Below are positions 2-14,562 of a DNA stretch of 20,000 nt, piece by piece. The notes under the pieces were generated by a model that ran no database searches, was not told the origin of the DNA, and saw nothing but the letters and a program-made list of their open reading frames with translations. How positions within the stretch are numbered: position 1 is the stretch's first letter; each line of letters starts with the position of its first letter. The stretch lies in sequence record SRR2962707_1184; one strand, given 5' to 3'. The translations under genes were made by a program, and so were the position numbers.

Positions 2-481
2 GAAGATATCGCGGCCACGAACCTTACTATTCTTGATACACGAAAGACGCTACCAGGCTTACGCAGCGCACAAAAATACGCGGTTAAAGTCGGCGGCGCA
101 CAAAATCACAGAATTGGACTTTTTGATGCCTTCTTGATCAAAGAAAACCACATTATGGCAGCAGGCTCGATCACCAATGCGGTCAACATGGCCAAGCAAA
201 TTGCGCCAGGCAAAACCATCGAAGTGGAAACAGAAAGCTTGGCAGAGGTTGCCCTAGCCGTGGAGGCTGGCGCCGACATCATTATGTTGGACAACTTTTC
301 CTATGAAGACATGGCAACCGCTGTCACCCGCTTTAAAGGACAAGTAAAATTTGAAGCATCTGGTAACATGGATCAAGAAAAGCTAAAACGGGTTGCCCAA
401 ACAGGGGTGGATTATGTTTCCATTGGCGCCCTCACCAAACACGTTCAAGCCATCGACCTCTCTCTTCGAGTCCATAAATAA
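2..481 (+). CDS. nadC: Quinolinate phosphoribosyltransferase (nicotinate-nucleotide pyrophosphorylase), 5'-truncated by the window edge
   Basis: The frame is open from position 2 and reads [50 protein letters not shown]. It contains the QPRTase motifs DTRKT, NHR, LIKENH, EVE, IMLDN, EASG and SIGALT. Stop TAA at 479-481. Confidence 0.97.
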
Positions 482-491
482 GGAACATATG

Positions 492-1676
492 ATGAGCGAC
501 AGTATATTAGTCATTAATTGCGGCAGCTCTTCTCTGAAATTTGCTGTTCTGTGTGACGAAGGACAATCCGTATTGCTCGAAGGCATTGCCGATAGACTCG
601 GCTATACCAACAGCACTCTTACGTTTAAAAAAGACGGCAACAAAGAGTCTATCCACCTTAAAGAAGGCACTCATAAGAGCGCCGTCGCCGAAATCAAAAA
701 GTGGTTAAGTGACAGACCGGCTATTTTGGACAGCCTAACGGGGATTGGTCACCGGGTCGTACATGGTGGCGAGACCTTTAGTCAATCTGTGCTGATTGAC
801 CAATCTGTCATAAACGGCATTGCTGAATGCGCGAATTTTGCGCCCTTACACAGCCCAGCTCATATTATCGGCATGAATGTGGCCATTGAACTCTTCCCGG
901 GCATACCGCAAGTTGCCGTGTTTGATACCGCGTTCCACCAAACGCTTGCAGCGGAACAGTACCTTTACCCGATTCCTATGGCACTGTATCGACAGCACCA
1001 CTTTCGCAAATACGGTTTTCATGGCACCAGCTATCGCTACATTAGCCGCCGTTTGGCAGAACTTGAACCAAACAGCCTACAACAAGGTGTGCTTGTCGCG
1101 CATTTAGGCAACGGCGCCAGCACCTGCGCAATCAATAAAGGTCAATCCACAGACACCAGCATGGGGATTACGCCACTTGAAGGCCTTATGATGGGGACGC
1201 GCTGTGGCAGTTTAGACCCAAGCCTGCTTTCTTTTATTGCTGAAGCGGAAGGCATTTCCTCGGCCGACGCATTGGATGTATTGAACAAAAAAAGCGGTTT
1301 GCTGGGCATCTCCGAACTGTCCAATGATTGCCGAACCTTAGAAGAAGCCATGGCACTGGGCAATGAACAAGCCAAATTAGCGCTGGATATGTTTGCCATC
1401 CGAACCGCCAAATACCTTGTTAGCGCCGCCACCACTCTCGACAGCATTGATCATTTGGTCTTTACCGGTGGCATTGGTGAAAATTCCTCCTATGTTCGCG
1501 CGGCCATATGCCAACAATTAAAAGCCTTTAATATTTACATTGATGGTGATAAAAACTCTTTACGGGGGGCGACGATGAGCATTGAGTCAAAACAGAGTCA
1601 TGTCAAAGTCTGGATCATCCCAACCAACGAAGAACTTATGATTGCTTTGGATACCATCCACTTAATTCGTCAATAA
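492..1676 (+). CDS. ackA: Acetate kinase
   Basis: Motifs ILVINCGSSSLKF, GHRVVHGG, VAVFDTAFH, KYGFHG, HLGNGAS, MGTRCG, FTGGIGENS and IPTNEE. AAGGA RBS at 480-484 overlaps the nadC stop. Start ATG is 492 (489 possible), not the 393 given in the ORF track. Confidence 0.97.
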   Translation: MSDSILVINCGSSSLKFAVLCDEGQSVLLEGIADRLGYTNSTLTFKKDGNKESIHLKEGTHKSAVAEIKKWLSDRPAILDSLTGIGHRVVHGGETFSQSVLIDQSVINGIAECANFAPLHSPAHIIGMNVAIELFPGIPQVAVFDTAFHQTLAAEQYLYPIPMALYRQHHFRKYGFHGTSYRYISRRLAELEPNSLQQGVLVAHLGNGASTCAINKGQSTDTSMGITPLEGLMMGTRCGSLDPSLLSFIAEAEGISSADALDVLNKKSGLLGISELSNDCRTLEEAMALGNEQAKLALDMFAIRTAKYLVSAATTLDSIDHLVFTGGIGENSSYVRAAICQQLKAFNIYIDGDKNSLRGATMSIESKQSHVKVWIIPTNEELMIALDTIHLIRQ

Positions 1677-1717
1677 TTTATATTAACCAACACTCGTACA
1701 AGTAGGACCCCTTAATT

Positions 1718-3823
1718 ATGTCGACAAACGTGTTAATGACAGTACCGACCGGACCCGGTGTTGGTTTAACATCCGTCTCTGTTGGACTGGTTCGTGCCCT
1801 AGAGCAACAAGGTTTGAAAGCGAGTTTTTTCAAACCCATCGCCCAGCCACACCCAGGCGATAGCGGCCCAGACAAATCAACCGCAATGGTCGCACAAGGA
1901 TCAACGCTTACACCGGCCGAGCCAATTCCCTTGCATGAGGCCGAACGATACCTATACAACGACAATATCGAAGAGTTAATGGAAGAAATCGTTGGTCGCT
2001 TCCAAGCCAGCGTAGAGCCAGATTCCACCGTCATCGTCGAAGGTCTTGCGCTTATCTCAGGGCACCCTTATGCAACCCGCTTGAACAAAGCCATTGCGCG
2101 AACCCTTGATGCAGGCTTAGTACTGGTTACCGCCCCTAATAATATGCGCGTGAACGAACTTGAGCATCACGTTGAAATTGCCGCTGGGTCCTACGGTGGC
2201 ATTAAAGCCCCTGACGTCATTGGCTGCATTTTAAACAAAACCACTCCGGGTTCATTAGGCGTTAAATCCTATGGTGACTTATTTGCTCAGCGCGGTATTT
2301 TTAAACGCAACTTCAGTCTTCTAGGGCAAATTCCCGTTTCTGAAGAACTCACCTACCCGCGAGTCAAAGACGTTGCAGACTTTTTACAAGCCAAAATAGT
2401 CAACGCTGGCGAGATGGAATCGCGACGTGTTCAGTCCTACACTTTGTGCGCCCGTGGCGTTGAAAACATGCTGGAAGCTTTGCGTCCAGGTGTTCTGGTA
2501 TTCACCCCTGGGGATCGTACCGACATCATCATGGCGACCGCCATTGCCGCGCTTAACGACACTAAAATCGCCGCTCTGGTATTAACCGGTGGCTATCAGC
2601 CTAGTGACGCACTAATGGTCTTGTGTGGCAAAGCCATGGCGAAAGGCTTGCCAGTGCTTTCTGTGACGACCAATAGCTGGGAAACGGCGATCACCATGCA
2701 GTCGTTTAACCAAGAAATCCCCTTGGACGACAAAGAACGCATATTGACCGTTAAAGAACACATTGCCCGCTGTATTGATCATGACTGGGTCAATTCTTTT
2801 GCGATGAACCAAGAAGAAAGAAAGCTGTCTCCACCAGCGTTCCGTTATCGCTTAATAGAGCAAGCTCGATCCCTCAACAAGCGAATCATTCTTCCTGAAG
2901 GTGAAGAAATTCGCACGATACAAGCGGCGTCCATTTGCGCTGAGCGTGGCATTGCACGCTGTACGTTATTAGGCAAAGAAGCTGAAATTCTTCGTATTGC
3001 ACAAAATAACGGCATTGAGCTTAGCCATGGCGTCGAAATCTTAGACCCTGAGAGCATTCGTGAACGTTATGTTGCTCCTATGGTTGAGCTGCGCAAACAT
3101 CGCGGACTGACTGACATCATTGCCAGAGAGCAACTCGAAGACAATGTGGTGCTCGGTACCATGATGCTGCAAACCAACGATGTTGATGGTCTTGTGTCTG
3201 GTGCGATCCACACCACCGCCAATACCATACGTCCTGCCCTACAGCTCATTAAAACATCAAAAACAGCGTCGCTAGTCTCTTCCGTTTTCTTTATGTGCTT
3301 ACCAGATCAAGTACTTGTTTACGGTGATTGCGCGATCAATCCAGACCCTACGGCCGAACAGCTCGCTGAAATTGCAATTCAAAGTGCCGATTCCGCTACC
3401 GCGTTTGGTATTGCGCCAAAAGTCGCCATGATCAGTTACAGCACCGGTGGTTCTGGTAGCGGTAATGATGTGGATAAAGTGCGAGAAGCAACCGCGATTG
3501 CACAACAGCGCCGCCCAGATTTGCTGATTGATGGGCCTTTGCAATACGACGCCGCCATCATGGAAAAAGTCGCCAAACAGAAAGCGCCTAATAGCAAGGT
3601 AGCAGGCAAGGCAACCGTGTTTATCTTCCCTGACCTCAACACAGGAAATACCACCTATAAAGCCGTGCAACGAAGCGCAGACGTAGTCAGTATCGGCCCA
3701 ATGCTGCAAGGCATTCGCAAACCCGTTAATGATTTGTCTCGTGGCGCCTTGGTGGATGACATAGTCTACACCATTGCGATTACGGCCATTCAAGCTGGCC
3801 AAACCAACCAAGGTAACGCATAA
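1718..3823 (+). CDS. pta: Phosphate acetyltransferase, long form (BioD-like N-terminus, DRTGG domain, PTA_PTB catalytic domain)
   Basis: 701 aa. N-terminal GVGLTSVS..FFKPI, middle TPGDR..LTGG, catalytic LPEGEE, SGAIHTT, GDCAINPDP, DGPLQYDAA, FPDLNTGN and PVNDLSRG. Follows ackA directly. Confidence 0.97.
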   Translation: MSTNVLMTVPTGPGVGLTSVSVGLVRALEQQGLKASFFKPIAQPHPGDSGPDKSTAMVAQGSTLTPAEPIPLHEAERYLYNDNIEELMEEIVGRFQASVEPDSTVIVEGLALISGHPYATRLNKAIARTLDAGLVLVTAPNNMRVNELEHHVEIAAGSYGGIKAPDVIGCILNKTTPGSLGVKSYGDLFAQRGIFKRNFSLLGQIPVSEELTYPRVKDVADFLQAKIVNAGEMESRRVQSYTLCARGVENMLEALRPGVLVFTPGDRTDIIMATAIAALNDTKIAALVLTGGYQPSDALMVLCGKAMAKGLPVLSVTTNSWETAITMQSFNQEIPLDDKERILTVKEHIARCIDHDWVNSFAMNQEERKLSPPAFRYRLIEQARSLNKRIILPEGEEIRTIQAASICAERGIARCTLLGKEAEILRIAQNNGIELSHGVEILDPESIRERYVAPMVELRKHRGLTDIIAREQLEDNVVLGTMMLQTNDVDGLVSGAIHTTANTIRPALQLIKTSKTASLVSSVFFMCLPDQVLVYGDCAINPDPTAEQLAEIAIQSADSATAFGIAPKVAMISYSTGGSGSGNDVDKVREATAIAQQRRPDLLIDGPLQYDAAIMEKVAKQKAPNSKVAGKATVFIFPDLNTGNTTYKAVQRSADVVSIGPMLQGIRKPVNDLSRGALVDDIVYTIAITAIQAGQTNQGNA

Positions 3824-4101: not shown

Positions 4102-4548
4102 ATGAACCGTCTACGCGCCCATCAAGGTGGATTTACGCTATTGGAATTAATGGTCGTCATTGCCATTATTTCTATTCTTGCCGCCATCACCGCCCCAACG
4201 TTTACCCGTCAAATCACAAAAGCAAAACTGGTTGAAGCTCAAAATATAGCCACCCAAAGTCAATCGTTTATTGAGGAGTACATTCTGCTCAACGGGACCT
4301 TCCCATCCACCACTGAGTTCGCTGCCATAGCGCCCACGGTCGCAAGCGATTCTATTGTGAAAAGTATTGCGGTAAGCGATCAAGAAGAAGGCACTGGCAG
4401 TGTGACTGTGACACTCAACAGCGACACCGGCATTAGCGAGGGGAACTATTTCAAATACAGCAGAGATGACAGCAATGATTGGCAATGCGTCTCCGATTTA
4501 GACAGTAAGCTCCTTCCCCCGCAATGCAGCACGGTAGAGGTCGAATAG
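4102..4548 (+). CDS. pilA: Type IVa major pilin (prepilin)
   Basis: Class III signal MNRLRAHQGG|FTLLELMVVIAIISILAAI with Glu5. C-terminal Cys pair WQC...PPQC (D-region). First gene of the pilABCD cluster. Confidence 0.9.
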   Translation: MNRLRAHQGGFTLLELMVVIAIISILAAITAPTFTRQITKAKLVEAQNIATQSQSFIEEYILLNGTFPSTTEFAAIAPTVASDSIVKSIAVSDQEEGTGSVTVTLNSDTGISEGNYFKYSRDDSNDWQCVSDLDSKLLPPQCSTVEVE

Positions 4549-4550
4549 TC

Positions 4551-5501
4551 ATGACTTTAGAGGAGATTTTAGCCAGTGCCATCAAGCTTGCTGCCAGTGA
4601 CATACACATAGAACAAACTGCCGCTGGCATCCATGTCAATACACGACAATATGGCGTCATTCACGTACTGGCGACCTTAGGGGCAGACAATCCATTGATC
4701 AATCGTATTAAAATGCGAGCCAACTTAGACCTGTCTGAAACGCGCAGAACTCAAGAAGGCCAATTCAGTTTTACCTACCAACAACAAACAACGTTTGTTC
4801 GCGTAAGCCTTATCGCCACCATAAAAGGGGAAAAAGTTGCATTACGTCTGCTGCCCGAAAAAACACGCTTCAACCTTGATAGCATAGGACTGCCCGATTC
4901 TTTGCAAGTACAGCTGGTCAATCAATTGGAAAAGCCAAATGGATTAATTCTCGTCTGCGGGGCGACTGGCGCGGGCAAAAGCACAACGCTTTACTCTTGT
5001 TTAGATTATTTGAACAATGAGAAACGCACTATTTTTACCATTGAAGACCCAGTAGAGCATGAAATAAGCGGACTCTTTCAATGTGAACCAAAGCCAGAAA
5101 TCGGCCTCAATGCCATCCATCTGCTAAAAGCGTTTTTACGACAAGACCCAGACATCATTATGGTGGGGGAAATCAGGGACGCAGAAACCGCCAATCTTGC
5201 GATTAATGCATCGTTAACAGGCCACCTAGTGTTAGCCACTTTGCATACGAATTCTACGCTGGATGCGATCCATCGCTGCCGCAGCTGGCAAGTCGACTTT
5301 TTTTCACTTGTCAGCTCCCTCAAGCTGATCATCCACCAAGCCATGGAATACCGCTCCAGCAGCCAAAATGCGCTGTTTAGTGGCTTGTTGCCTTTGTGGA
5401 AAGAAACCTTGCCAATAGATTACCAGCAACTTATTGCTACCCCTTCATTGTGGCAGGCGTATAGCCATAAAAACTCAGGGGGAGCAGATGCCTTGGTTTA
5501 G
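4551..5501 (+). CDS. pilB: PilB/GspE-family assembly ATPase, unusually short (316 aa)
   Basis: ASDIHIE, Walker A GATGAGKST, Asp box TIEDPVE, Walker B LRQDPDIIMVGEIRD and His box TGHLVLATLH. Lies between pilin and PilC. ATG 4551 is 2 nt after the pilA stop. Confidence 0.85.
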   Translation: MTLEEILASAIKLAASDIHIEQTAAGIHVNTRQYGVIHVLATLGADNPLINRIKMRANLDLSETRRTQEGQFSFTYQQQTTFVRVSLIATIKGEKVALRLLPEKTRFNLDSIGLPDSLQVQLVNQLEKPNGLILVCGATGAGKSTTLYSCLDYLNNEKRTIFTIEDPVEHEISGLFQCEPKPEIGLNAIHLLKAFLRQDPDIIMVGEIRDAETANLAINASLTGHLVLATLHTNSTLDAIHRCRSWQVDFFSLVSSLKLIIHQAMEYRSSSQNALFSGLLPLWKETLPIDYQQLIATPSLWQAYSHKNSGGADALV

Positions 5502-6540
5502 CGTCAAATTTGATGGCACGACTTACTATCGATACGCCGTATCAGAACGCCGTTTGTTACTGCATTATGTGTCGTTAGGGCAATGGAATATAGATTGTCG
5601 ACGCTATACACCACGACACTTCAACTACAAAACCTTGCTTCTCTTTTTCACTGAAATTAACAGTGCACTGCAAAATGGACTGCAACTTAACGAAGCAATA
5701 CACAGCCTTTCTGAGTCCTCCAGTAACCCAATCTTAAATAAAAACTGCTTGGCGATCTGCCATGAGCTGCATACCGGAGAAGCCTTTAACACTATTTTCT
5801 CGAGACTCTCAAATCAACGCTGCCAGCCTTACTGTCAACTCATCGTTAGCGATGGCTCAAGAGAAGATTGCGAGCAAAGCATTAAAACCTCAATAGAACA
5901 ACTTACGTCACTTCTCGCGTGGTCTGCAAAACTGTTAAAAGGCATTACCTACCCCTTTTTTATCATGCAGGTCGCGCTTGCTATCAATTTGCTTCATAGC
6001 CTGTTTGCCAGCACTGACGCCCCTTCTAATCTTCTACTCAACACAAGCATGTATTTAATAACGAGCTTTGTCCAAGCCATAATAGTGATCAATTTCATCA
6101 ATGGAAACGCCAGTAACTGGTTTGAGACTTTCAACGCAAGCTTTCGCTTAACAAAGTTATTGGCGTTATTGAACGCCAGCCGTAAAACAGGCAAGCCCTT
6201 GCAGCAAGCACTGTACAAAATGCCTCTGCACTTTAATCACGCCACATTAAAAGAAGAGATTCTTTTTACTTACTACTCGTTACAACTCGGCAACAGCTAC
6301 CAAACTAGCTTTCCCACAAGTTGGTTTCCCAAAGAATCCGCTTTAGCACTCGATGCCGCCAGTCAAAATGGGGACATCGACAGGGCCCTAACATTAGCAG
6401 CACAAGAGCATGAACGACAATGCCAGCAGGTGATTTATTGGTTTGAAAAGATCGTCCCTGCCTGCTGTCTTTTTATTGCCGCAGGCTTTGTTGTGTCCGC
6501 GTTATTGTCCATCTACCAACCTTTGTTGGCGCTGTCTTAA
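5488..6540 (+). CDS. pilC: PilC/GspF-family inner-membrane platform protein (divergent)
   Basis: Two GspF-like repeats (LQNGLQLNEAI...ITYP and KTGKPLQQAL...SQNGDIDRAL), three hydrophobic segments and a C-terminal SIYQP. GGGGAG RBS before ATG 5488. Synteny supports the call. Confidence 0.75.
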   Translation: MPWFSVKFDGTTYYRYAVSERRLLLHYVSLGQWNIDCRRYTPRHFNYKTLLLFFTEINSALQNGLQLNEAIHSLSESSSNPILNKNCLAICHELHTGEAFNTIFSRLSNQRCQPYCQLIVSDGSREDCEQSIKTSIEQLTSLLAWSAKLLKGITYPFFIMQVALAINLLHSLFASTDAPSNLLLNTSMYLITSFVQAIIVINFINGNASNWFETFNASFRLTKLLALLNASRKTGKPLQQALYKMPLHFNHATLKEEILFTYYSLQLGNSYQTSFPTSWFPKESALALDAASQNGDIDRALTLAAQEHERQCQQVIYWFEKIVPACCLFIAAGFVVSALLSIYQPLLALS

Positions 6541-7334
6541 TGACGCTCACGCTATTATCAGCAGCGCTGTATGCGTTCAGCTTACTGTGTCTTGGTAGTT
6601 TTGCAGCGCTGTTTTCCATTCGCTGGCCTGCCGTTAATCTCTACTTAGCCGAAAAAGAAGCCCATGAGCTGCTCTCTCTAAATTTTATAAAAACACCGCC
6701 CAAAAACAGTGTCTTTGGACGCTCCTACTGCCCCCATTGTCATCACACCCTAGGCTGGAAAGACACAATTCCTCTGTTTAGCTATTGTTATTTAAAGGGG
6801 CAATGCCGCTATTGCGCCAAGTCAATTTCAGCCTATTATTGGCGCATCGAAATACTGTTTTTGATCACTGGGCTTCCTCTTCTGTGGTTACCGCTCAGTC
6901 TTTATGAGCTGATTCTTAACACCGTTATTATCAGTGCACTGCTCAGCGCGGCCATTATTGATTACCAGCACAGACTCATTCCAAATGAATGCAGCGGCCT
7001 TGCCATTGCAGCCGCTTTAGCGCTAAACATAGGCCCCCCTAATCTAGATGCGTCTATTTTAGGGGTCTTGTTGGGATATGCGATTGTTGCCCTGCTAAGA
7101 GAGTGCTATCTTTATTATCGAAACAGAGAAGGCATTGGACTTGGCGATGCAAAACTGCTTGCAGCGCTAGGCGCTTGGACATACATGGAATCGTTATTCT
7201 CTATTCTTTTGTATGCCAGCCTTTTAGGTATTGTATATACCGCCCTTTATTATAAGACAGGCAGGCAAAACATACCGTTTGGCCCTTTTTTAGTCATTTC
7301 AGGCATCGCCCACTTTTATTGCATTCACTTATGA
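6540..7334 (+). CDS. pilD: Prepilin peptidase / N-methyltransferase (A24)
   Basis: LGSF, RSYCPHC and GQCRYC zinc motifs, catalytic IID..HRLIP and GLGDAKL, IPFGPFL. TAATG overlap with pilC. Confidence 0.93.
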   Translation: MTLTLLSAALYAFSLLCLGSFAALFSIRWPAVNLYLAEKEAHELLSLNFIKTPPKNSVFGRSYCPHCHHTLGWKDTIPLFSYCYLKGQCRYCAKSISAYYWRIEILFLITGLPLLWLPLSLYELILNTVIISALLSAAIIDYQHRLIPNECSGLAIAAALALNIGPPNLDASILGVLLGYAIVALLRECYLYYRNREGIGLGDAKLLAALGAWTYMESLFSILLYASLLGIVYTALYYKTGRQNIPFGPFLVISGIAHFYCIHL

Positions 7335-8191: not shown

Positions 8192-9403
8192 ATGGGACTG
8201 ACTGATTTCTCAAGCCACAAAGCCTTGCTCATAGAAGACATGGCCGAAGCCAGAATAATGCAAAAAAAGATGCTAACCGACTTTGGTTTCCAATCGATTG
8301 ATATCGCCATGAAAGCGGAAACGGCTATCGATCTACTTAAAACACAATCTTTTGACCTTATTCTATCGGATTACAATCTAGGCAATGGCAAAGATGGTCA
8401 GCAGCTACTTGAAGAAGTACGACATTCCAAACTTATCCCAAATACCGCAACGTATTTAATGGTTACCGCCGAAACCTCGATTGAAATGGTGATGGGTGCG
8501 ATTGAATTTCAGCCGGATGGTTACATCACCAAACCTTTTTCACAAGCGCTATTACAACGCCGACTTGGAAAGCTTTTAGAAATGAAAGCCAAACTAAAAC
8601 AGGTCAATATTGCACTTGATAAAAAAGACTTCCCTAAAGCCATCGAAGAAGCCTATAAGGTCATCGAAGCGCACCCTTCTCTAGAAGGAAAATGCCATCG
8701 AGTCATCGGTGAATGCTACTTAGAGATGAAAGAATACCGACAAGCAAAAGAGATTTTTGCGAGCGTGTTAAAAAATCGAAAAATGCCTTGGGCAGTCTTC
8801 GGTGAAGCCAGAGCCTGCTTCTACCTTAATCAACTAGAGCAATCTGAAAGCAAGTTCCGTCAATTAATGCTCGACAACCGTTTCTTTGTCAGCGCTTATG
8901 ATTGGTTGGCCAAGATTAAAATTGCACAAAAAGACAATGCGGCAGCACAAGCCATTTTAATTGACGCGATTGAACGCTCGCCAAAAAACCTATTACGTCA
9001 GATGGAGCTGGGCAAACTCAGTTTAATCATTAAGGACTACAATATCGCGGAATTGGCGTTTAGACGCGCGGTATCGCTGGCCAAACACTCTTGCTATAAC
9101 ACGGCTGAGATATATTTAAATCATCTCTCTACTTTCGCCAAACTGTCAGAAGAAGCCCCTCTTTCATCACGCCAGAAAGAAACGTTTCAGTCTACATTGA
9201 AAAAAATACACCAATTGTTTTTTGATGACCCTGCGGTGAGAGCACAAACTTACTCCTATGAGACTGATATTTACCTTAACAGCAAAGACCCCAACAATGC
9301 GAAGAACACTCTTCAGCTATGGATTCGTGATGTGGAAACAGGCATAGCACTGGCTCCGACCAATCAGCAAAACACCCACTATAAACTCGTTCTTGAAGGT
9401 TAA
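8192..9403 (+). CDS. Response regulator with N-terminal receiver domain and TPR-like helical repeats (copy 1)
   Basis: REC motifs LLIED, DLILSD(60)Y, MVTAE and YITKPF. These are followed by TPR-like helices (GECYL..KEY.QA, WAVFGEARA, AYDWLAK, SPKN..RQ..LG). No recognisable DNA-binding domain. Confidence 0.85.
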   Translation: MGLTDFSSHKALLIEDMAEARIMQKKMLTDFGFQSIDIAMKAETAIDLLKTQSFDLILSDYNLGNGKDGQQLLEEVRHSKLIPNTATYLMVTAETSIEMVMGAIEFQPDGYITKPFSQALLQRRLGKLLEMKAKLKQVNIALDKKDFPKAIEEAYKVIEAHPSLEGKCHRVIGECYLEMKEYRQAKEIFASVLKNRKMPWAVFGEARACFYLNQLEQSESKFRQLMLDNRFFVSAYDWLAKIKIAQKDNAAAQAILIDAIERSPKNLLRQMELGKLSLIIKDYNIAELAFRRAVSLAKHSCYNTAEIYLNHLSTFAKLSEEAPLSSRQKETFQSTLKKIHQLFFDDPAVRAQTYSYETDIYLNSKDPNNAKNTLQLWIRDVETGIALAPTNQQNTHYKLVLEG

Positions 9404-9405
9404 TC

Positions 9406-10062
9406 ATGAAAAAGATGGACATAAGCACAATTCTTGCCAGCGCCATACATGAAAGCAAAAACCAAGTAGGCACTCTTCTTTATCAACTGCAAGGCCTCAA
9501 GGAAACGCTACCAAGCAATAATGCTAACGAATCTAAAGTCACCATGATTGAAGAGTCGCTAAAAAAGCTAAACGACGAATGGGTGGAATATCTTTATCTC
9601 TACAGACTCGCATCTAATGGTTATGAGCTGCACGTAGACACTTTTTTACTGGATGAGTTTTTAGACGACCAAGTGTTCGCATTATTAGCGTCCGCTAATG
9701 CCAAACACCTTGATCTAAGCTATCACTGTGAAAAGAGTCTAACCGGTACTTTCGATGAACGCTTAATGACCGCGGTCGTGGGAACCGCTGTCTACAATGC
9801 ACTGCGCTTCGCGAAATCCAAAATTGAAATCCACGCCAGCATCGAAAAAAACTTTTTGGTGATCAGCGTTGAAGACGATGGCCAAGGCTTTAAAGGCACA
9901 CCAGAAGACGAAGATACCCTGAACTCCAACACGGGATTGGGGCTTTATTTTGCCCAGCTGTCTGCCAACGCTCATGTGTGCAATGAGGCAGAGGGTTATA
10001 TCAAAAAAGAGCAATCCACATCATTAGGCGGTGCAAAACTCGCGATTTATCTGCCTCAATAA
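9406..10062 (+). CDS. Small cytoplasmic histidine kinase with no sensor or TM domain (copy 1)
   Basis: H-box ASAIH(15)ESKN at the N-terminus, N-box YNALRF, G1 VEDDGQGF, G2 TGLGLYF and G3 LGGA...LP. 218 aa. Confidence 0.85.
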   Translation: MKKMDISTILASAIHESKNQVGTLLYQLQGLKETLPSNNANESKVTMIEESLKKLNDEWVEYLYLYRLASNGYELHVDTFLLDEFLDDQVFALLASANAKHLDLSYHCEKSLTGTFDERLMTAVVGTAVYNALRFAKSKIEIHASIEKNFLVISVEDDGQGFKGTPEDEDTLNSNTGLGLYFAQLSANAHVCNEAEGYIKKEQSTSLGGAKLAIYLPQ

Positions 10063-10101
10063 ATCGCTTTCATCGGCTGTCTTATGGGCTTTTAGCGCCT
10101 G

Positions 10102-10791
10102 TTAAGGGAGAAAAATTTCAAATCGACTACCGCCTAGCACTGACTCATTATTCAAATGAACCCAGCCACGCTGTTCACGGTTTTGATGCATGTTGGCAAC
10201 CAGGTAACAATAATACCAACCCAGCATCTGATTGGTTAATCCCGAGAAATCTTGCTGTTCTATTATTTCTGAGAAGTGCTGAAGACGCTCTTCTGGATAC
10301 CCCCTGCCGTTATCATCAATGATGATTTTGGTGCCATCTTCGGTTTTCTGTAAATCAATTTGAATAACGCCGTCGCTATAGCGGATGGCATTAACAATGG
10401 CGATGTCCAAAATATGGCTGACCAAATTGATGTCCACATAGCCACTAATGTCATCATTGGCAATGACCTTGATCGTGACCCCAACGCGGCGACAGAGAAC
10501 GTCATGAGAAATCACTTGCTCCTCAATAAGCTCTAATAAGTAGGCATCAGTCAATCGAAAGGTGAGTTCATTTTTTTCGAGCAGATACAAGTTATGCAAT
10601 TGCTCTATACCATTCTGCATACGACTAATTTCATAGTGAATAGAGGTTAAATCTGTCTCTTCTGGCGTCTTGGAGGATGAGCCCAACGGCATTTTCTCCA
10701 ACGTATGCTGTAATAAATTCACAGATTGTTTCATGTCATTCATAGAGGCTATCATGACATGATGAAATTCATTTTTTATCGAGTCTCTCAT
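10102..10791 (-). CDS. Histidine-kinase-like HATPase protein lacking the H-box His (putative pseudokinase, copy 2)
   Basis: N-box VNAIRY, G1 IDDNGRGY and G3 LGGSRFEIFLP are present. The H-box reads ASMN(18)DMKQ and G2 reads QMLGWYY. ATGA overlap with the upstream regulator. Confidence 0.8.
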   Translation of the reverse strand: MRDSIKNEFHHVMIASMNDMKQSVNLLQHTLEKMPLGSSSKTPEETDLTSIHYEISRMQNGIEQLHNLYLLEKNELTFRLTDAYLLELIEEQVISHDVLCRRVGVTIKVIANDDISGYVDINLVSHILDIAIVNAIRYSDGVIQIDLQKTEDGTKIIIDDNGRGYPEERLQHFSEIIEQQDFSGLTNQMLGWYYCYLVANMHQNREQRGWVHLNNESVLGGSRFEIFLP

Positions 10792-12464
10792 GCTGAATCC
10801 TGAGGGTTATATTTTGTAATAAATGTTTTAAGCGTTTGGAGACGAGAGAACTGTTTATGATTCTCTCCCACATGATTCAACCGTTGAAAGGCTTGATGAC
10901 ATCGCTCTAATAGCCTGTCACTACCTTGATCCGCTGCCATTTTTTTAATCACTGTTTGCACCAAGTTTAAATTAAGACCTGGGTGGTTAGGAGAGATTAA
11001 GAGTGCCTCTTCAAACACGGCAAGGGCCTCATCGTACTCTTGTTTCGCATAGTGATTTAACGCCTTAAAATTGAGCGCTTTAGTTTTTGCTCGAGCCCCC
11101 ATAGGAAGCGGCTCATCAATAAAGTCCAAAATAGCCTGCTCTTGCTCTGACGATAGCTGTTGAACAGTGCCTTCAGATTGCCATTGGGCATTTGCCTCTT
11201 CTTTCTTGCCTGCCAAGTAAAGTGTTTTACCTAATTGAACCGAAATGTCAGGCGTTTTTAATTCAGGGGCTTCTTCGATCATTTTAATCGCGGCGTCTAA
11301 GCTTGCTAGCGCCTGCTTAGCATGACCTTGAATGCTGTATAATCGGCTTTCACAAAGGGCTTTTTTGAGACGCACATCATGTTGATCTGAATACTTTTTA
11401 GAGACTCTATTAAGAACCAGCAACGCATCGTCGGTCATTTTTTTACGCTCTCGACCTTCTAGCTCGACCGATGCCTCAGACAACAAATCAGCCAACTGGA
11501 AATATTGCTCTGGTGATTCATTAATCGTGTTCGCCGTCAGCTTCAATGCCAGATTACTGGCCTTGACCGCACTGTGAACATCACCATTCTCGCAACTCAA
11601 CTCCATCATCTTTTTTTGTCGCAGCGCCACCAAGGGAGACAGTTTGACGCTTTCCTCTAGCGCTTGCTGAGCTTGACTAAAGCGCCCTTTTTTCTCAAAG
11701 CAAAAGGCCAACAAATCGTACCCTGTGGTACTCTGTGGAAAGCTTTTTAATGTTGACTCTAAGCACTGAATCGCAGTATCCCAATCATGGCGACCAATAT
11801 GCATTTTGGCCATGCCTAGCATCGCCCAGTCAATATCGCGAGATTCTAACTCAGTGCTACAAAGTTGCGTCAGCGCTTGCCAAGATTCTGTGGCCAAGAA
11901 AGCATCCACCAAGGCTTTTTTACACCAAATAGAGTAGCGACCTTGGCCCGCAATATGTTCCTCACATAACCGTTGCAACTGAGGGTAGTCTTTCTTTGCT
12001 TGAGCTTCTTTCATGTTCGCAAGCGCCTCATTTTGCGCAAACAAACGCTCTAACCTTTTGCTTAACACTCCCTGAGTAAATGGCTTACCAAGGTACTCAT
12101 CAGGGTGTGACTCCATAATGCCAAATACCACATCGCGACTTGTTTCTGCGGAAATCACAATGAAAATAGCATCACTTTTTAATAATTTAAGTTGCCGTAA
12201 TTCTTCTAAAACTTGCTGGCCGTTTTTGCCATGGCCTAACCGGAAATCACACAATACCAAGTCATATTTTCGCGCACGGCACGCCTCAATCACCCCTTTC
12301 CCTGTGGAAGTTTGGTCGACTAAGGCGAAGCCAAGCGCCACCAGCATCTGCCGAATGGATTGTCGGGAGTTTTCAAACTCATCCGCCACCAGCGCAGAAT
12401 AGCTCCCATAGGAAAGAGCGTTTTTAATGGGCCCAGATCGTATCCGTGTATTTATGTCTACCAT
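10788..12464 (-). CDS. Response regulator with N-terminal receiver domain and extended TPR region (copy 2)
   Basis: REC motifs LVADE, DLVLCD(73)F, VISAE and YLGKPF. TPRs include WAMLGMAK, GYDLLAF...GRFSQAQQALEE..KLSP and the C-terminal YDEALAVFEEALLISPNH. Clearly homologous to 8192..9403. Confidence 0.87.
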   Translation of the reverse strand: MVDINTRIRSGPIKNALSYGSYSALVADEFENSRQSIRQMLVALGFALVDQTSTGKGVIEACRARKYDLVLCDFRLGHGKNGQQVLEELRQLKLLKSDAIFIVISAETSRDVVFGIMESHPDEYLGKPFTQGVLSKRLERLFAQNEALANMKEAQAKKDYPQLQRLCEEHIAGQGRYSIWCKKALVDAFLATESWQALTQLCSTELESRDIDWAMLGMAKMHIGRHDWDTAIQCLESTLKSFPQSTTGYDLLAFCFEKKGRFSQAQQALEESVKLSPLVALRQKKMMELSCENGDVHSAVKASNLALKLTANTINESPEQYFQLADLLSEASVELEGRERKKMTDDALLVLNRVSKKYSDQHDVRLKKALCESRLYSIQGHAKQALASLDAAIKMIEEAPELKTPDISVQLGKTLYLAGKKEEANAQWQSEGTVQQLSSEQEQAILDFIDEPLPMGARAKTKALNFKALNHYAKQEYDEALAVFEEALLISPNHPGLNLNLVQTVIKKMAADQGSDRLLERCHQAFQRLNHVGENHKQFSRLQTLKTFITKYNPQDSA

Positions 12465-12474
12465 AGTCTCTCTT

Positions 12475-13095
12475 TTAGTTTGTTGATTTCAGATGACTGA
12501 CTAATAACTGCCCAGCGTCTTTAATATGCTTTTTTAGCAGTGATAATGCCGACGAGTGATCACCCGACTCAATCAATCCAAGTAATACTGCATGCTCTTT
12601 TTGACTGTGGTCTTTGTAGTTCATTGGCCCATATTGGAAGCCCAAATAACGGCTGGCTTGCTGATTTAGGGAACACACTGTCTTGTATAAGGTTGGTCTA
12701 TTAGCTGGAAAATACAAGATCTTATGGAACGCCCAGTTTAATTCCCCTTTTTCCAGTAAGGTGAGTCGGGCGTTATCCAATAACCCTAAGGTGGCTTTGG
12801 CGCGCCCAATATCATCCGCTTGAATACCCTCAAACGCATAAGAAAAAAGTCTGGGCTCAAGGTCTGCACGCATCAAATAAAGATCTTCTGCTTCTTGCCA
12901 GTTCAGATCTGGGATAATGTGCCCAGCTTTACCATGAGGAACCAACCAGCCCTCTGCTTTCAATAGCAAAAGCGCATCACGAACTGGAATGCGACTCACT
13001 CCATAACGATCAGATAATTCCACTTGCCTTAATGGACGACCAACGGGCAATCGGTTGTTTAATATATCGTCCTTTATTTTTTGATACAGTAGCAT
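12475..13095 (-). CDS. GntR-family (FCD domain) transcriptional regulator
   Basis: wHTH LYQKIKDDI...LRQVELSDRYGVSRIPVRDAL..L.AEG. FCD motifs LY.MRA.LE, NWAFH and SQKEH. Confidence 0.92.
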   Translation of the reverse strand: MLLYQKIKDDILNNRLPVGRPLRQVELSDRYGVSRIPVRDALLLLKAEGWLVPHGKAGHIIPDLNWQEAEDLYLMRADLEPRLFSYAFEGIQADDIGRAKATLGLLDNARLTLLEKGELNWAFHKILYFPANRPTLYKTVCSLNQQASRYLGFQYGPMNYKDHSQKEHAVLLGLIESGDHSSALSLLKKHIKDAGQLLVSHLKSTN

Positions 13096-13106
13096 TGGCT
13101 CAACCT

Positions 13107-14279
13107 CTAGTTACTTTTTGTAAGTTTGGCTGCTAACAAGAAGACACTACCCAATACAATCCCCCAAAAAGCAGACGCAATTCCCGCAAAAGATACGCCA
13201 GAGACGGTTACTAAAAAGGTAACTAAGGCCGCTTCACGGTACTGATCATTAGACACCGCACTTTTTAAATTCATACCTATGGTCCCTAATAAAGCAATGC
13301 CCGCCAATGCCGCTATCATGCTTTTTGGAAACACTGAAAACAGAGCAACCACCGAGGTACCGGCTAATCCAGCAAGCAGATAAAAAAACCCTGCAGATAA
13401 ACCCGCAATATAACGTCGCTTAGGGTCCCGATGGCACTCATCGCCCGAGCAAATCGCCGCGGTGATGGCGGCCAAATTAAACGCAAAGCCACCCAAAGGC
13501 GCCAACACAACAGAAGCAAGCCCTGTCCAGCTGATCAAGGGAGACACTGGTGTGTGGTATTGACTGCTGCGCATAACCGCAACACCGGGGATATTTTGTG
13601 AGGTCATAGTGACGATAAACAGAGGAATACCAATGCCAATCAAAGCATTCACATTCCACTCAGGCCACACCCATACAAATTGACCTACAGACAGCGGAAT
13701 ATGGCTCAACATAGCATCATCCGAACGTACGACGCTCAAAATAACACCGACCATAAACACAATCAAAATCACGTAACGAGGCAAAAAATACTTAACCACC
13801 AAATACGTCACCAACATGGCCGCCACTAAAAATGTGTCTGTTTTTAACGACTCAAAAATCCCCAAACCGAACTTAAACAGCACCCCTGCCAACATCGCAC
13901 AAGCAATGGGCAAAGGCACTAACCGCATTAATCGATCAAATAAACCTGTGACGCCAGTAAGCAGCGTTAAGGCGCCGGCAAAGATAAACACGCCAATAGA
14001 CTCTGCGTATGTGATCTGCCCCAAACTGGTTGCCAATAACGCGGCCCCAGGCGTAGACCAAGCCGTAATAACCGGGGCTTTGTACCACAAGGAAAGAAAG
14101 AAACAGCTCGCCCCCATGCCAAGCCCTAAGGCCATGATCCAAGAAACAATTGTGTGTGAATCTGCCCCCGACGCCTGAGCAGCTTGAAAAACAATGGCAA
14201 CAGAACTCGCAAAGCCAACCAATACCGCAATAAAACCAGCCACCACGGCACTAAGACTTATATCTTTGAATACAGACAA
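13107..14279 (-). CDS. benE: BenE/YdcO-family benzoate:H+ symporter-like membrane protein
   Basis: Polytopic membrane protein with AWSTPGAALL, PLFIVTMTSQNIPG, NLAAITAAIC and ALAGIAL. TTG start preceded by a GGAGA RBS. The actual substrate cannot be determined from sequence. Confidence 0.88.
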   Translation of the reverse strand: MSVFKDISLSAVVAGFIAVLVGFASSVAIVFQAAQASGADSHTIVSWIMALGLGMGASCFFLSLWYKAPVITAWSTPGAALLATSLGQITYAESIGVFIFAGALTLLTGVTGLFDRLMRLVPLPIACAMLAGVLFKFGLGIFESLKTDTFLVAAMLVTYLVVKYFLPRYVILIVFMVGVILSVVRSDDAMLSHIPLSVGQFVWVWPEWNVNALIGIGIPLFIVTMTSQNIPGVAVMRSSQYHTPVSPLISWTGLASVVLAPLGGFAFNLAAITAAICSGDECHRDPKRRYIAGLSAGFFYLLAGLAGTSVVALFSVFPKSMIAALAGIALLGTIGMNLKSAVSNDQYREAALVTFLVTVSGVSFAGIASAFWGIVLGSVFLLAAKLTKSN

Positions 14280-14319
14280 CGCTTATCTCCCCAATCTAGG
14301 TTTTCATTAGCACCACTAT

Positions 14320-14562
14320 ATTTCAAAAAATATATTTTTGTATACATTTTTAACAAATCGGCCTAAAAACAAAAAAACCGTCACCATGCTTTGCAGGATA
14401 ATTTCAAAAAAAATATTTTCGTATACATTTTTAACTAATCGGCCCAAAAACAAAAAAGCCGTCACCATGCTTTGCAGGATAATTTTAAAAAATATATTTT
14501 TGTATACGTTTTTAACGAATCTGCCCCAAAACAAAAAAGCCGTCACCATGCTTTGCATGATA
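14320..14562. repeat. Tandem direct repeat, 3 x 81 bp
   Basis: Units 14320-14400, 14401-14481 and 14482-14562 align without gaps. By hand count unit 2 has 5 and unit 3 has 8 mismatches to unit 1. Confidence 0.97.
14329..14356 (-). promoter_or_regulatory. Putative sigma70 promoter with GntR-type operator for the benE-gntR unit
   Basis: Minus strand TTGTTA-N16-TATATT, with the palindrome TGTATACA (14339-14346) in the spacer. It resembles GntR-family GT-N-AC operators. Confidence 0.55.

Follow-up and report, generated by a model that had tools for sequence, protein, structure and literature searches.

The 20,000-nucleotide stretch of DNA from sequence record SRR2962707_1184 (hereafter the window) is Marinomonas DNA, and carries two pairs of genes facing each other tail to tail. 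Each pair includes a response regulator (RR) formed by a receiver (REC) domain followed by tetratricopeptide repeats (TPR), and a protein with the histidine kinase (HK) fold reduced to the dimerization and phosphotransfer (DHp) and the catalytic and ATP-binding (CA) domains. In HK2, the kinase-fold protein of the second pair, the phospho-acceptor histidine is missing in all the genomes in which the gene was found. From its motifs we infer that HK2 is a conserved His-less pseudokinase, unable to autophosphorylate, for which 'kinase' is the wrong word. The arrangement regarded as probable is that of an active pair (RR1-HK1, pair 1) lying beside a kinase-dead accessory pair (HK2-RR2, pair 2), the two forming neighbouring, largely separate branches, with pair 2 dispensable. 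Genes and residues on which this reading is based are located as follows.

8192..9403, plus strand: RR1, shortened REC-TPR regulator of subfamily 1 (403 amino acids; open reading frame (ORF), Pfam, AlphaFold2)
8369..8371, plus strand: codon of RR1 Asp60, predicted phospho-acceptor (translation; invariance in the alignment)
9406..10062, plus strand: HK1, predicted minimal cytoplasmic HisKA-type kinase made up by DHp and CA (218 amino acids; HATPase_c, full catalytic motifs)
9448..9450, plus strand: codon of HK1 His15, predicted H-box phospho-acceptor, in the string HESKN (alignments)
10063..10101, no strand: 39-bp spacer separating the convergent stops (stops at 10062 and 10102)
10102..10791, minus strand: HK2, putative pseudokinase with the histidine kinase fold, DHp and CA, subfamily 2 (229 amino acids; HATPase_c, alignments)
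10738..10740, minus strand: codon of HK2 Asn18, at the site of the missing phospho-acceptor His (alignments)
10788..12464, minus strand: RR2, full-length REC-TPR regulator of subfamily 2 (558 amino acids; Pfam, intact pocket)
12246..12248, minus strand: codon of RR2 Asp73, predicted phospho-acceptor (translation, alignment)

The four ORFs, their coordinates, the tail-to-tail layout and the 39 bp between the stops are exactly as given in an earlier note, made by a model from the letters of this DNA, and all the peptide strings quoted there were found in the translations. The note regarded both regulators and both kinase-like proteins as homologous, as they are: RR1 and RR2 share 26% identity over 362 amino acids (E 9e-41), the similarity extending far beyond REC, HK1 and HK2 23% identity over 225 amino acids (E 3e-17). 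The pairs are also, as had been proposed, too diverged for a recent duplication: no inverted duplication is seen at the DNA level, where only short chance repeats were detected. Pfam, run on all four proteins, agrees with the note in finding neither transmembrane (TM) nor sensor domains in HK1 and HK2, and neither DNA-binding nor enzymatic output domains in RR1 and RR2. The two 'kinases' fared differently, the term suiting HK1, which has the full motif set, and not HK2, in which the His is absent in 15 of 15 sequences.

Related loci were taken as the best 80 of 568 confirmed relatives, obtained in one scan of genome contigs with HK1-type motifs as seed. They include 38 loci of the Marinomonas clade, a count which takes in three loci with other labels (Maribrevibacterium in two, Rhodanobacter aciditrophus in one), and 42 loci outside it; single loci are indicated below by L numbers. 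The kinase comparison rests on 96 sequences from these loci and the window (39 HK1, 42 from outside Marinomonas, 15 HK2). HK1 orthologues sharing 50-99% identity with the window protein are without exception named Marinomonas, and the nearest locus is that of M. pollencensis.

HK1 is, by its motifs, a HisKA-type kinase with a complete catalytic set. The protein scores 28.5 bits with Pfam HATPase_c (cutoff 26.4), and a profile of its orthologues aligns to the DHp-CA structure of SrrB (E 2.7e-9), His15 of HK1 falling on the SrrB His. H15, N131, the G1 residues D157xG159xG161 and the G2 string T176-G-L-G-L are invariant in 24 orthologues, and in all 39 HK1 sequences. As the His is residue 15, there is no space for an N-terminal sensor or a membrane segment.

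HK2 departs from this pattern at two of the catalytic sites. In the H-box alignment, HK1 ASAIHESKNQ is matched by HK2 ASMNDMKQS, and Asn18 takes the place of the phospho-acceptor His. No HK2 sequence features His at this position (N in 7, K in 6, Q in 2), whereas His is found in 39/39 HK1 and 42/42 outside kinases. The G2 box TGLGL, intact in all 81 other kinases, is replaced in the window HK2 by Q188-M-L-G-W192, and in the clade by Q-x-x-[GAS]-W: the Thr of the box is Q in 15/15 sequences, and the next residue is Gly in only two. Q and W, along with a subsequent Cys, are invariant in the 15 sequences and form a new clade motif (Q...W..C). What surrounds these changes is largely kept. N134 of the N box is found in 15/15 sequences, G1 (D160, G162, G164) as DxGxG in 13/15. 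Next to the lost His, D (+1), M (+2) and S (+5) are present in all, K or R (+3) in 13/15; residue +4 is N or T in 12/15, and Q in the window HK2 and its two nearest relatives. Candidates for a substitute phospho-acceptor were sought in HK2 itself and discarded, H11 (at -7) being present in only 5/15 sequences and H52 unconserved. The fold appears preserved: HK2 scores 41.4 bits with HATPase_c, and the AlphaFold2 model (predicted local distance difference test, pLDDT, 85.2) includes only an intact two-helix DHp hairpin and the alpha/beta CA domain.

HK2-RR2 could be a functionless, decaying remnant heading for loss. HK2 is the fastest-evolving of the genes: the window and distant species share 33-38% identity in HK2 and 57-65% in HK1. 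Two lineages, moreover, have dropped pair 2. Yet the HK2 reading frame is intact in 15/15 genomes, the ratio of nonsynonymous to synonymous substitutions (dN/dS; measured on one of six species pairs, dS being saturated in the other five) is 0.045 for HK2 and 0.036-0.043 for the other three genes, and the Q...W..C motif has been fixed throughout the clade. The HK2 fold is confidently predicted, and the catalytic residues of RR2 are invariant. A remnant is accordingly a most improbable explanation; with its intact frames and low dN/dS, HK2 is under purifying selection, and looks like a maintained pseudokinase rather than a decaying gene. A word-index search returned only five matches to HK2, as if the protein were near-unique. 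This is a sensitivity artefact, since synteny gave 14 orthologues, sharing 33-79% identity.

Both regulators have the same architecture. Pfam detects Response_reg (2.8e-16) and TPR_19, TPR_8 and TPR_2 in RR1, Response_reg (1.4e-13), TPR_2 (7.3e-15) and further TPR families in RR2; the REC domains are closest to CheY both in NCBIfam and in the Protein Data Bank. In the AlphaFold2 model of RR1 (pLDDT 93.6, predicted template modelling score 0.88) REC spans about residues 1-117, and helix alpha5 runs into 16 TPR-like helices (residues 136-402). Foldseek matched CheY and 8-repeat TPR superhelices to separate parts of the model, and found no solved full-length counterpart. With 403 amino acids RR1 is a short form, devoid of about the last 180 residues of the usual REC-TPR protein. 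The receiver pocket of RR1 (E15, D16, D60, T92, K114) is kept in 38/38 aligned sequences, that of RR2 (D28, E29, D73, S105, K127) in 15/15, position 29 being D in two of them; the phospho-acceptor pocket is complete in 41/41 outside regulators, too. Residues invariant in the TPR superhelix across 50 family members include W200, D237, S263, R269, D282 and S300. The output of a REC-TPR regulator must go via this superhelix. A complex of two HK1 chains and the TPR part of RR1 (residues 128-403), predicted without alignments, scored 0.17 against a mark of 0.34, a value which speaks neither for nor against binding. The proposal of the earlier note that TPR scaffolds supply the kinase input gained no support. 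In Marinomonas rhodophyticola (L008:8784-9996) RR1 is broken into ORFs of 204 and 192 amino acids, by a frameshift or an assembly error, and this split sequence was excluded from RR alignments and trees.

A perfect receiver pocket in RR2, next to a protein which would be no phosphodonor, calls for another kinase, and HK1 is the nearest relative and the neighbour. The four proteins might accordingly work as one integrated cytoplasmic circuit, in which HK1 is the sole phosphodonor for RR1 and RR2, the TPR domains scaffold a hetero-complex, and HK2 acts as a modulator, for instance by phosphatase activity, by pairing with HK1 in heterodimers, or by sensing phosphorylated regulators as DivL does. 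This is possible and rather doubtful. The surfaces which are expected to hold kinase and regulator together do not fit it well. In HK2 the second DHp helix (YE..RmQN...QLhgLYL) is near the family consensus (YE..R.Nn.L.qLL.LYK), as is helix alpha1 of RR2 (DEFENSRqSIRQML; consensus DDF..FR.S..ML). Both DHp alpha2 of HK1 (NDEWVEYLYLY) and alpha1 of RR1 (EDMAEARIMQ) depart from consensus, and of 151 family representatives in the alignment no more than 2-3 have the W59, Y62 and Y64 of HK1. The presumed docking residues of HK1 and RR1 have thus moved away from those of HK2 and RR2, which suggests that pair 1 changed both sides of the interface, and was insulated from pair 2 rather than cross-wired with it. 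The hetero-complex envisaged in the earlier note finds an argument against it here.

The distribution of the pairs in the Marinomonas clade also bears on the single circuit. RR1-HK1 follows pilABCD-coaE-yacG in 38/38 loci. HK2-RR2 is found in 14 of them (15 genomes, counting the window), in each case placed between HK1 and gntR and convergent with pair 1. Among the 24 loci which have pair 1 alone at the site, gntR adjoins HK1 in 19 and benE in one; the downstream region differs in the remaining four. The four genes thus do not form an obligate four-component system, and the four-protein unit proposed in the earlier note is not supported; both pairs occur together in none of the 42 outside loci. 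On a tree of RR1 plus HK1 (43 rows, L008 omitted) two changes account for the distribution of pair 2. With an outgroup root, pair 2 was probably present in the ancestor of the genus and then lost twice, in a 20-species and in a 3-species clade; two is the minimum number of losses. The RR2 and HK2 sequences branch in an order which matches that of pair 1, and this indicates vertical inheritance. Moreover, the pairs form two distinct units of transcription, which converge, and the second seems to share its transcript with benE-gntR. In favour of a single circuit, the convergent layout, whose spacer is short (10-88 bp in the 14 pair-2 loci besides the window), is kept in all 15 pair-2 genomes, which span the deepest splits of the genus.

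Locus L027 is titled Rhodanobacter aciditrophus JCM 30774, yet all of its 20 kb is collinear with Marinomonas DNA, and the four proteins of its two pairs cluster with those of M. piezotolerans. The organism label looks wrong, or the assembly contaminated.

According to the arrangement favoured here, an active pair beside a kinase-dead accessory one, HK1 would phosphorylate RR1, and phosphorylation would alter what the TPR superhelix binds; the output would therefore be of the protein-protein type. HK2, devoid of autophosphorylation, would still dock RR2, because the DHp surface of the former and alpha1 of the latter stay near the family consensus. Its probable role would be to dephosphorylate RR2~P, as a phosphatase devoid of kinase activity, or to bind and sequester it. 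The phosphate on RR2 would have a source other than HK2, for example another kinase (HK1 being a possibility) or acetyl phosphate. The ackA-pta genes of acetyl-phosphate metabolism reside in the window (393-3823, plus strand), 4.4 kb upstream of the RR1 start, and occupy the corresponding upstream position in most Marinomonas-clade loci. Acetyl phosphate is a possible donor to RR2, and the proximity to RR1 may be coincidence.

The two pairs belong to old, distinct subfamilies. In the RR tree (79 rows, made up by 23 of the 38 usable RR1, window included, 15 RR2 and 41 outside sequences; quick search, with the SH-like approximate likelihood ratio test as the only support) the RR1 clade (support 100) joins five sequences from metagenome-assembled genomes of Pseudomonadales/Moraxellaceae. 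The RR2 clade (support 99) is nested within 13 sequences from Pseudohongiella, Moraxellaceae and Pseudomonas (support 97). The HK tree (80 rows, with the same quick search and type of support) results in the same partition, HK1 grouping with the same five partners (support 98), HK2 with the same thirteen (support 96). Since the two trees are congruent, regulator and kinase co-evolve as pairs, and the split between pair 1 and pair 2 predates the genus.

Outside Marinomonas, only single pairs were observed. The basic unit is, by sequence, a two-gene module, in which a REC-TPR regulator is followed by a translationally coupled DHp-CA kinase of roughly 215-260 amino acids. When 1.84 billion cluster representatives were compared with a profile built from 24 HK1 orthologues, 15,911 of them matched at E<=1e-3, including 519 with E<=1e-10 and 79 with E<=1e-30. 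The top 150 matches, taken without a length filter, are 100-282 amino acids long and match almost all end to end. Many clusters of REC-TPR proteins of 518-572 amino acids, one of them with 3,076 members, are present in the ESM Atlas. The 42 outside loci carry the labels Pseudomonas, Moraxellaceae, Pseudohongiella, Methylococcales, Chromatiales, Syntrophales/Smithella and Nitrospirota. In 41 of them the gene immediately preceding the kinase, on the same strand, encodes a REC-TPR regulator; the 42nd begins at a contig end. The encoded regulators are 515-588 amino acids long (some longest-ORF calls exceed this range), and the estimated gap between regulator and kinase genes varies from -13 to 116 nt, with a median of 18 nt, the Marinomonas median being 2 nt. 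No second pair was found within 10 kb in any of the 42 loci.

Clustering of 538 ORFs from the same loci revealed no output gene conserved beside the module beyond small clades. The commonest neighbour clusters, ribosomal-protein genes (L9, S18, S6), are seen in 7/42 loci; further recurrent neighbours are mostly housekeeping genes (fmt, rsmB, trkAH, glyQS, gyrB, recF, rnr, purA). Neighbours of this kind, with no partner in common, would suit two fully independent systems, brought side by side in Marinomonas by an accident of synteny, with no phosphotransfer between HK2 and RR2; RR2 might be driven by acetyl phosphate or by an unlinked kinase, for example, and HK2 might be a structural or ATP-binding partner of the TPR. 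The different subfamilies, strands and apparent operons of the two pairs, as well as the N box and G1 kept by HK2, point the same way. Full independence is nonetheless unlikely, as the conserved flank of the HK2 H box (D, M, K/R, N, S) and the consensus-like alpha1 of RR2 are hard to explain if docking between REC and DHp had been abandoned.

Smaller groups of outside loci have their own neighbours. In three loci of uncultured Gammaproteobacteria (L044, L052, L078) a gene for a 581-amino acid protein combining a PP2C phosphatase and a Ser/Thr kinase is found just upstream of the regulator, as is a DUF6524 gene, which occurs in five loci altogether. A PAS-GGDEF gene comes after the kinase in L045 and L050. 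In four loci of the Pseudomonas peli group (L064, L072, L073, L075) a GntR/FCD gene is directly upstream of the regulator; its product is only 24% identical to the GntR protein of the window (E 5e-15).

Several points weigh against the reading of an active pair beside a kinase-dead, largely separate one. All statements on kinase, phosphatase and binding activity are deduced from motifs. Nucleotide binding or an unconventional chemistry is possible for HK2, which keeps the N box and most of G1; the Q at +4 in the window HK2 makes the phosphatase reading weakest for this very genome; and dN/dS, as said, comes from a single species pair. Insulation is read from consensus strings and not from covariation. 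The persistence of the convergent neighbourhood in 15 genomes, genus-wide, could reflect a functional link between the pairs. The loci were found via HK1-type motifs, so that HK2-like genes elsewhere in the 24 genomes would be missed, and the statement that pair 2 never occurs without pair 1 holds by construction of the scan. Finally, both the RR and the HK tree carry long-branch warnings, and the exact sister groups are provisional.

Some known proteins resemble those described here. VieB of Vibrio cholerae, as described in the sections of PMC4352251 consulted, has a REC domain with the conserved Asp and then a TPR region, and no homology is recognised for its C-terminal half; in the same account it has no DNA-binding output, and acts by protein-protein contact with a kinase (PMC4352251). 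'VieB-like' has been used as a class name for REC-TPR regulators (PMC2222644). Judged from the published domain description, VieB shares the REC-TPR architecture with RR1 and RR2. The comparison, already drawn in the earlier note, holds for the domains and fails for the gene context: the gene for VieB accompanies those of the hybrid kinase VieS, which VieB inhibits, and of the EAL regulator VieA, RR1 and RR2 being found with minimal kinase-fold genes, and no homologue of VieS or VieA was found within the 20-kb window.

A functional hint comes from Pseudomonas syringae. One VieB-like regulator per genome is reported for this species, PSPTO1911 in strain DC3000 (PMC2222644). PSPTO_1911 and PSPTO_1912, adjacent and annotated as 'Response regulator/TPR domain protein' and 'Sensor histidine kinase', are listed in an 18-gene 'che' group contributing to swimming in a transposon sequencing (Tn-seq) study, with PC1 values of -0.56 and -0.54; the part of the source consulted gives no single-mutant validation (PMC11813219). 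Proteins of the P. syringae group are 77-78% identical, over their full length, to a P. graminis family member, and residues 17-546 of RR2 align end to end with one P. syringae-group REC-TPR regulator (E 3e-61). PSPTO_1911/1912 are very probably members of subfamily 2, the orthology being deduced from these P. syringae-group proteins. P. syringae has a single pair, not two as in the window, and the kinases of all nine Pseudomonas loci keep the phospho-acceptor His. Motility is the only functional lead for the module. Full-text searches of the literature outside subscription journals brought up no functional work on the family of REC-TPR regulators with minimal kinases, the Tn-seq hint apart. 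In three loci of the P. graminis group (L061, L067, L070) a methyl-accepting chemotaxis gene lies on the opposite strand a short way upstream of the regulator, with no ORF in between in L061 and L070 and a single small one in L067. This chemoreceptor neighbour fits the motility hint of P. syringae.

Loss of the phospho-acceptor need not abolish every activity of a histidine kinase. In the data consulted for CrdS of Myxococcus xanthus, the H371A change abolishes kinase activity and leaves the phosphatase no more than modestly slower (a half-life of 2.6 min, against 0.7 min); the kinase alone depends on the acidic residue at +1, the phosphatase alone on N or T at +4, and N375A, at +4, abolishes the phosphatase (PMC3510030). 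Most HK2 orthologues share with CrdS this type of +4 residue, the window HK2 and its Q do not. CrdS H371A/E372A and HK853 further differ from HK2 in being engineered mutants of bifunctional kinases, whereas HK2 is natural and long-conserved, and has lost the G2 box as well, unlike the kinase-dead CrdS and HK853 mutants.

DivL of Caulobacter crescentus is described in the consulted parts of two reports as a kinase fold with no phosphorylatable His, which reads the phosphorylation state of a regulator (PMC4211667; bioRxiv 10.1101/812529). HK2 and DivL share the His-less fold; HK2 has N, K or Q at the site, and is made up by DHp and CA only. DivL features a Tyr at the His site, and has membrane and PAS regions. 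RedCDEF of M. xanthus combines two kinase-like and two receiver proteins in one circuit, one of the kinase-like proteins being mainly a phosphate sink or phosphatase; the genes form a single operon, TPR domains are missing, and both kinase-like proteins retain the His. HK2 might be a natural 'reverse-signalling' pseudokinase, which reads the phosphorylation of RR2 and tells HK1 via mixed DHp dimers or TPR domains, as part of a four-component switch, made of two copies of the module, controlling motility or surface behaviour where kept. This is a highly unlikely extension.

The window starts with ackA, pta and a type IV pilus-like cluster, followed by coaE and yacG, and then by RR1-HK1 on the plus strand. 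After HK1 come HK2, RR2, a GntR/FCD gene and benE, all on the minus strand, then ehuABCD, arsR and nemA. The two genes next to pair 2 are located as follows.

12475..13095, minus strand: GntR/FCD-family regulator (Pfam GntR and FCD)
13107..14279, minus strand: BenE-family benzoate/H+ symporter (NCBIfam TIGR00843, 2.4e-128)

Spacing is tight throughout. The RR1 stop is 2 nt from the HK1 start, and the genes of RR2 and HK2 share 4 nt. On the minus strand the benE stop is 11 nt 5' of gntR, the gntR stop 10 nt 5' of the RR2 start, and pair 2 may be co-transcribed with the benE-gntR unit. A pattern scan found no terminator hairpin in the 39-bp spacer, the RNA fold z-score of which (-0.87) is no better than that of shuffles, and known RNA families gave 0 matches across the window. 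The compact pilus-like cluster (4102-7334, plus strand) encodes a 148-amino acid pilin, an ATPase, a PilC/ComGB-like protein and an A24 prepilin peptidase, and precedes coaE and yacG. The ATPase, of the PilB/ComGA-like type, is unusually short (325 amino acids, T2SSE domain only). The order and the sizes of the genes from the pilus cluster to coaE and yacG are the same across all Marinomonas-clade loci. An ORF of 80 amino acids between benE and ehuA (14316-14558, minus strand) has no match in Pfam or NCBIfam.

The locus is a variation on the two-component theme, in which a protein-binding regulator is combined with a natural pseudokinase paralogue, and is no new kind of system. Kinases which lack a sensor raise the question of where their input comes from, and the analysis defines a broad family pairing a minimal kinase with a REC-TPR regulator, a module widespread across bacteria but essentially unstudied. 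The Marinomonas locus is a natural experiment, a His-less paralogue having been under selection throughout the history of the genus. It offers a handle on signalling by phosphatase activity or docking as opposed to phosphorylation, and on the insulation of paralogous pairs.

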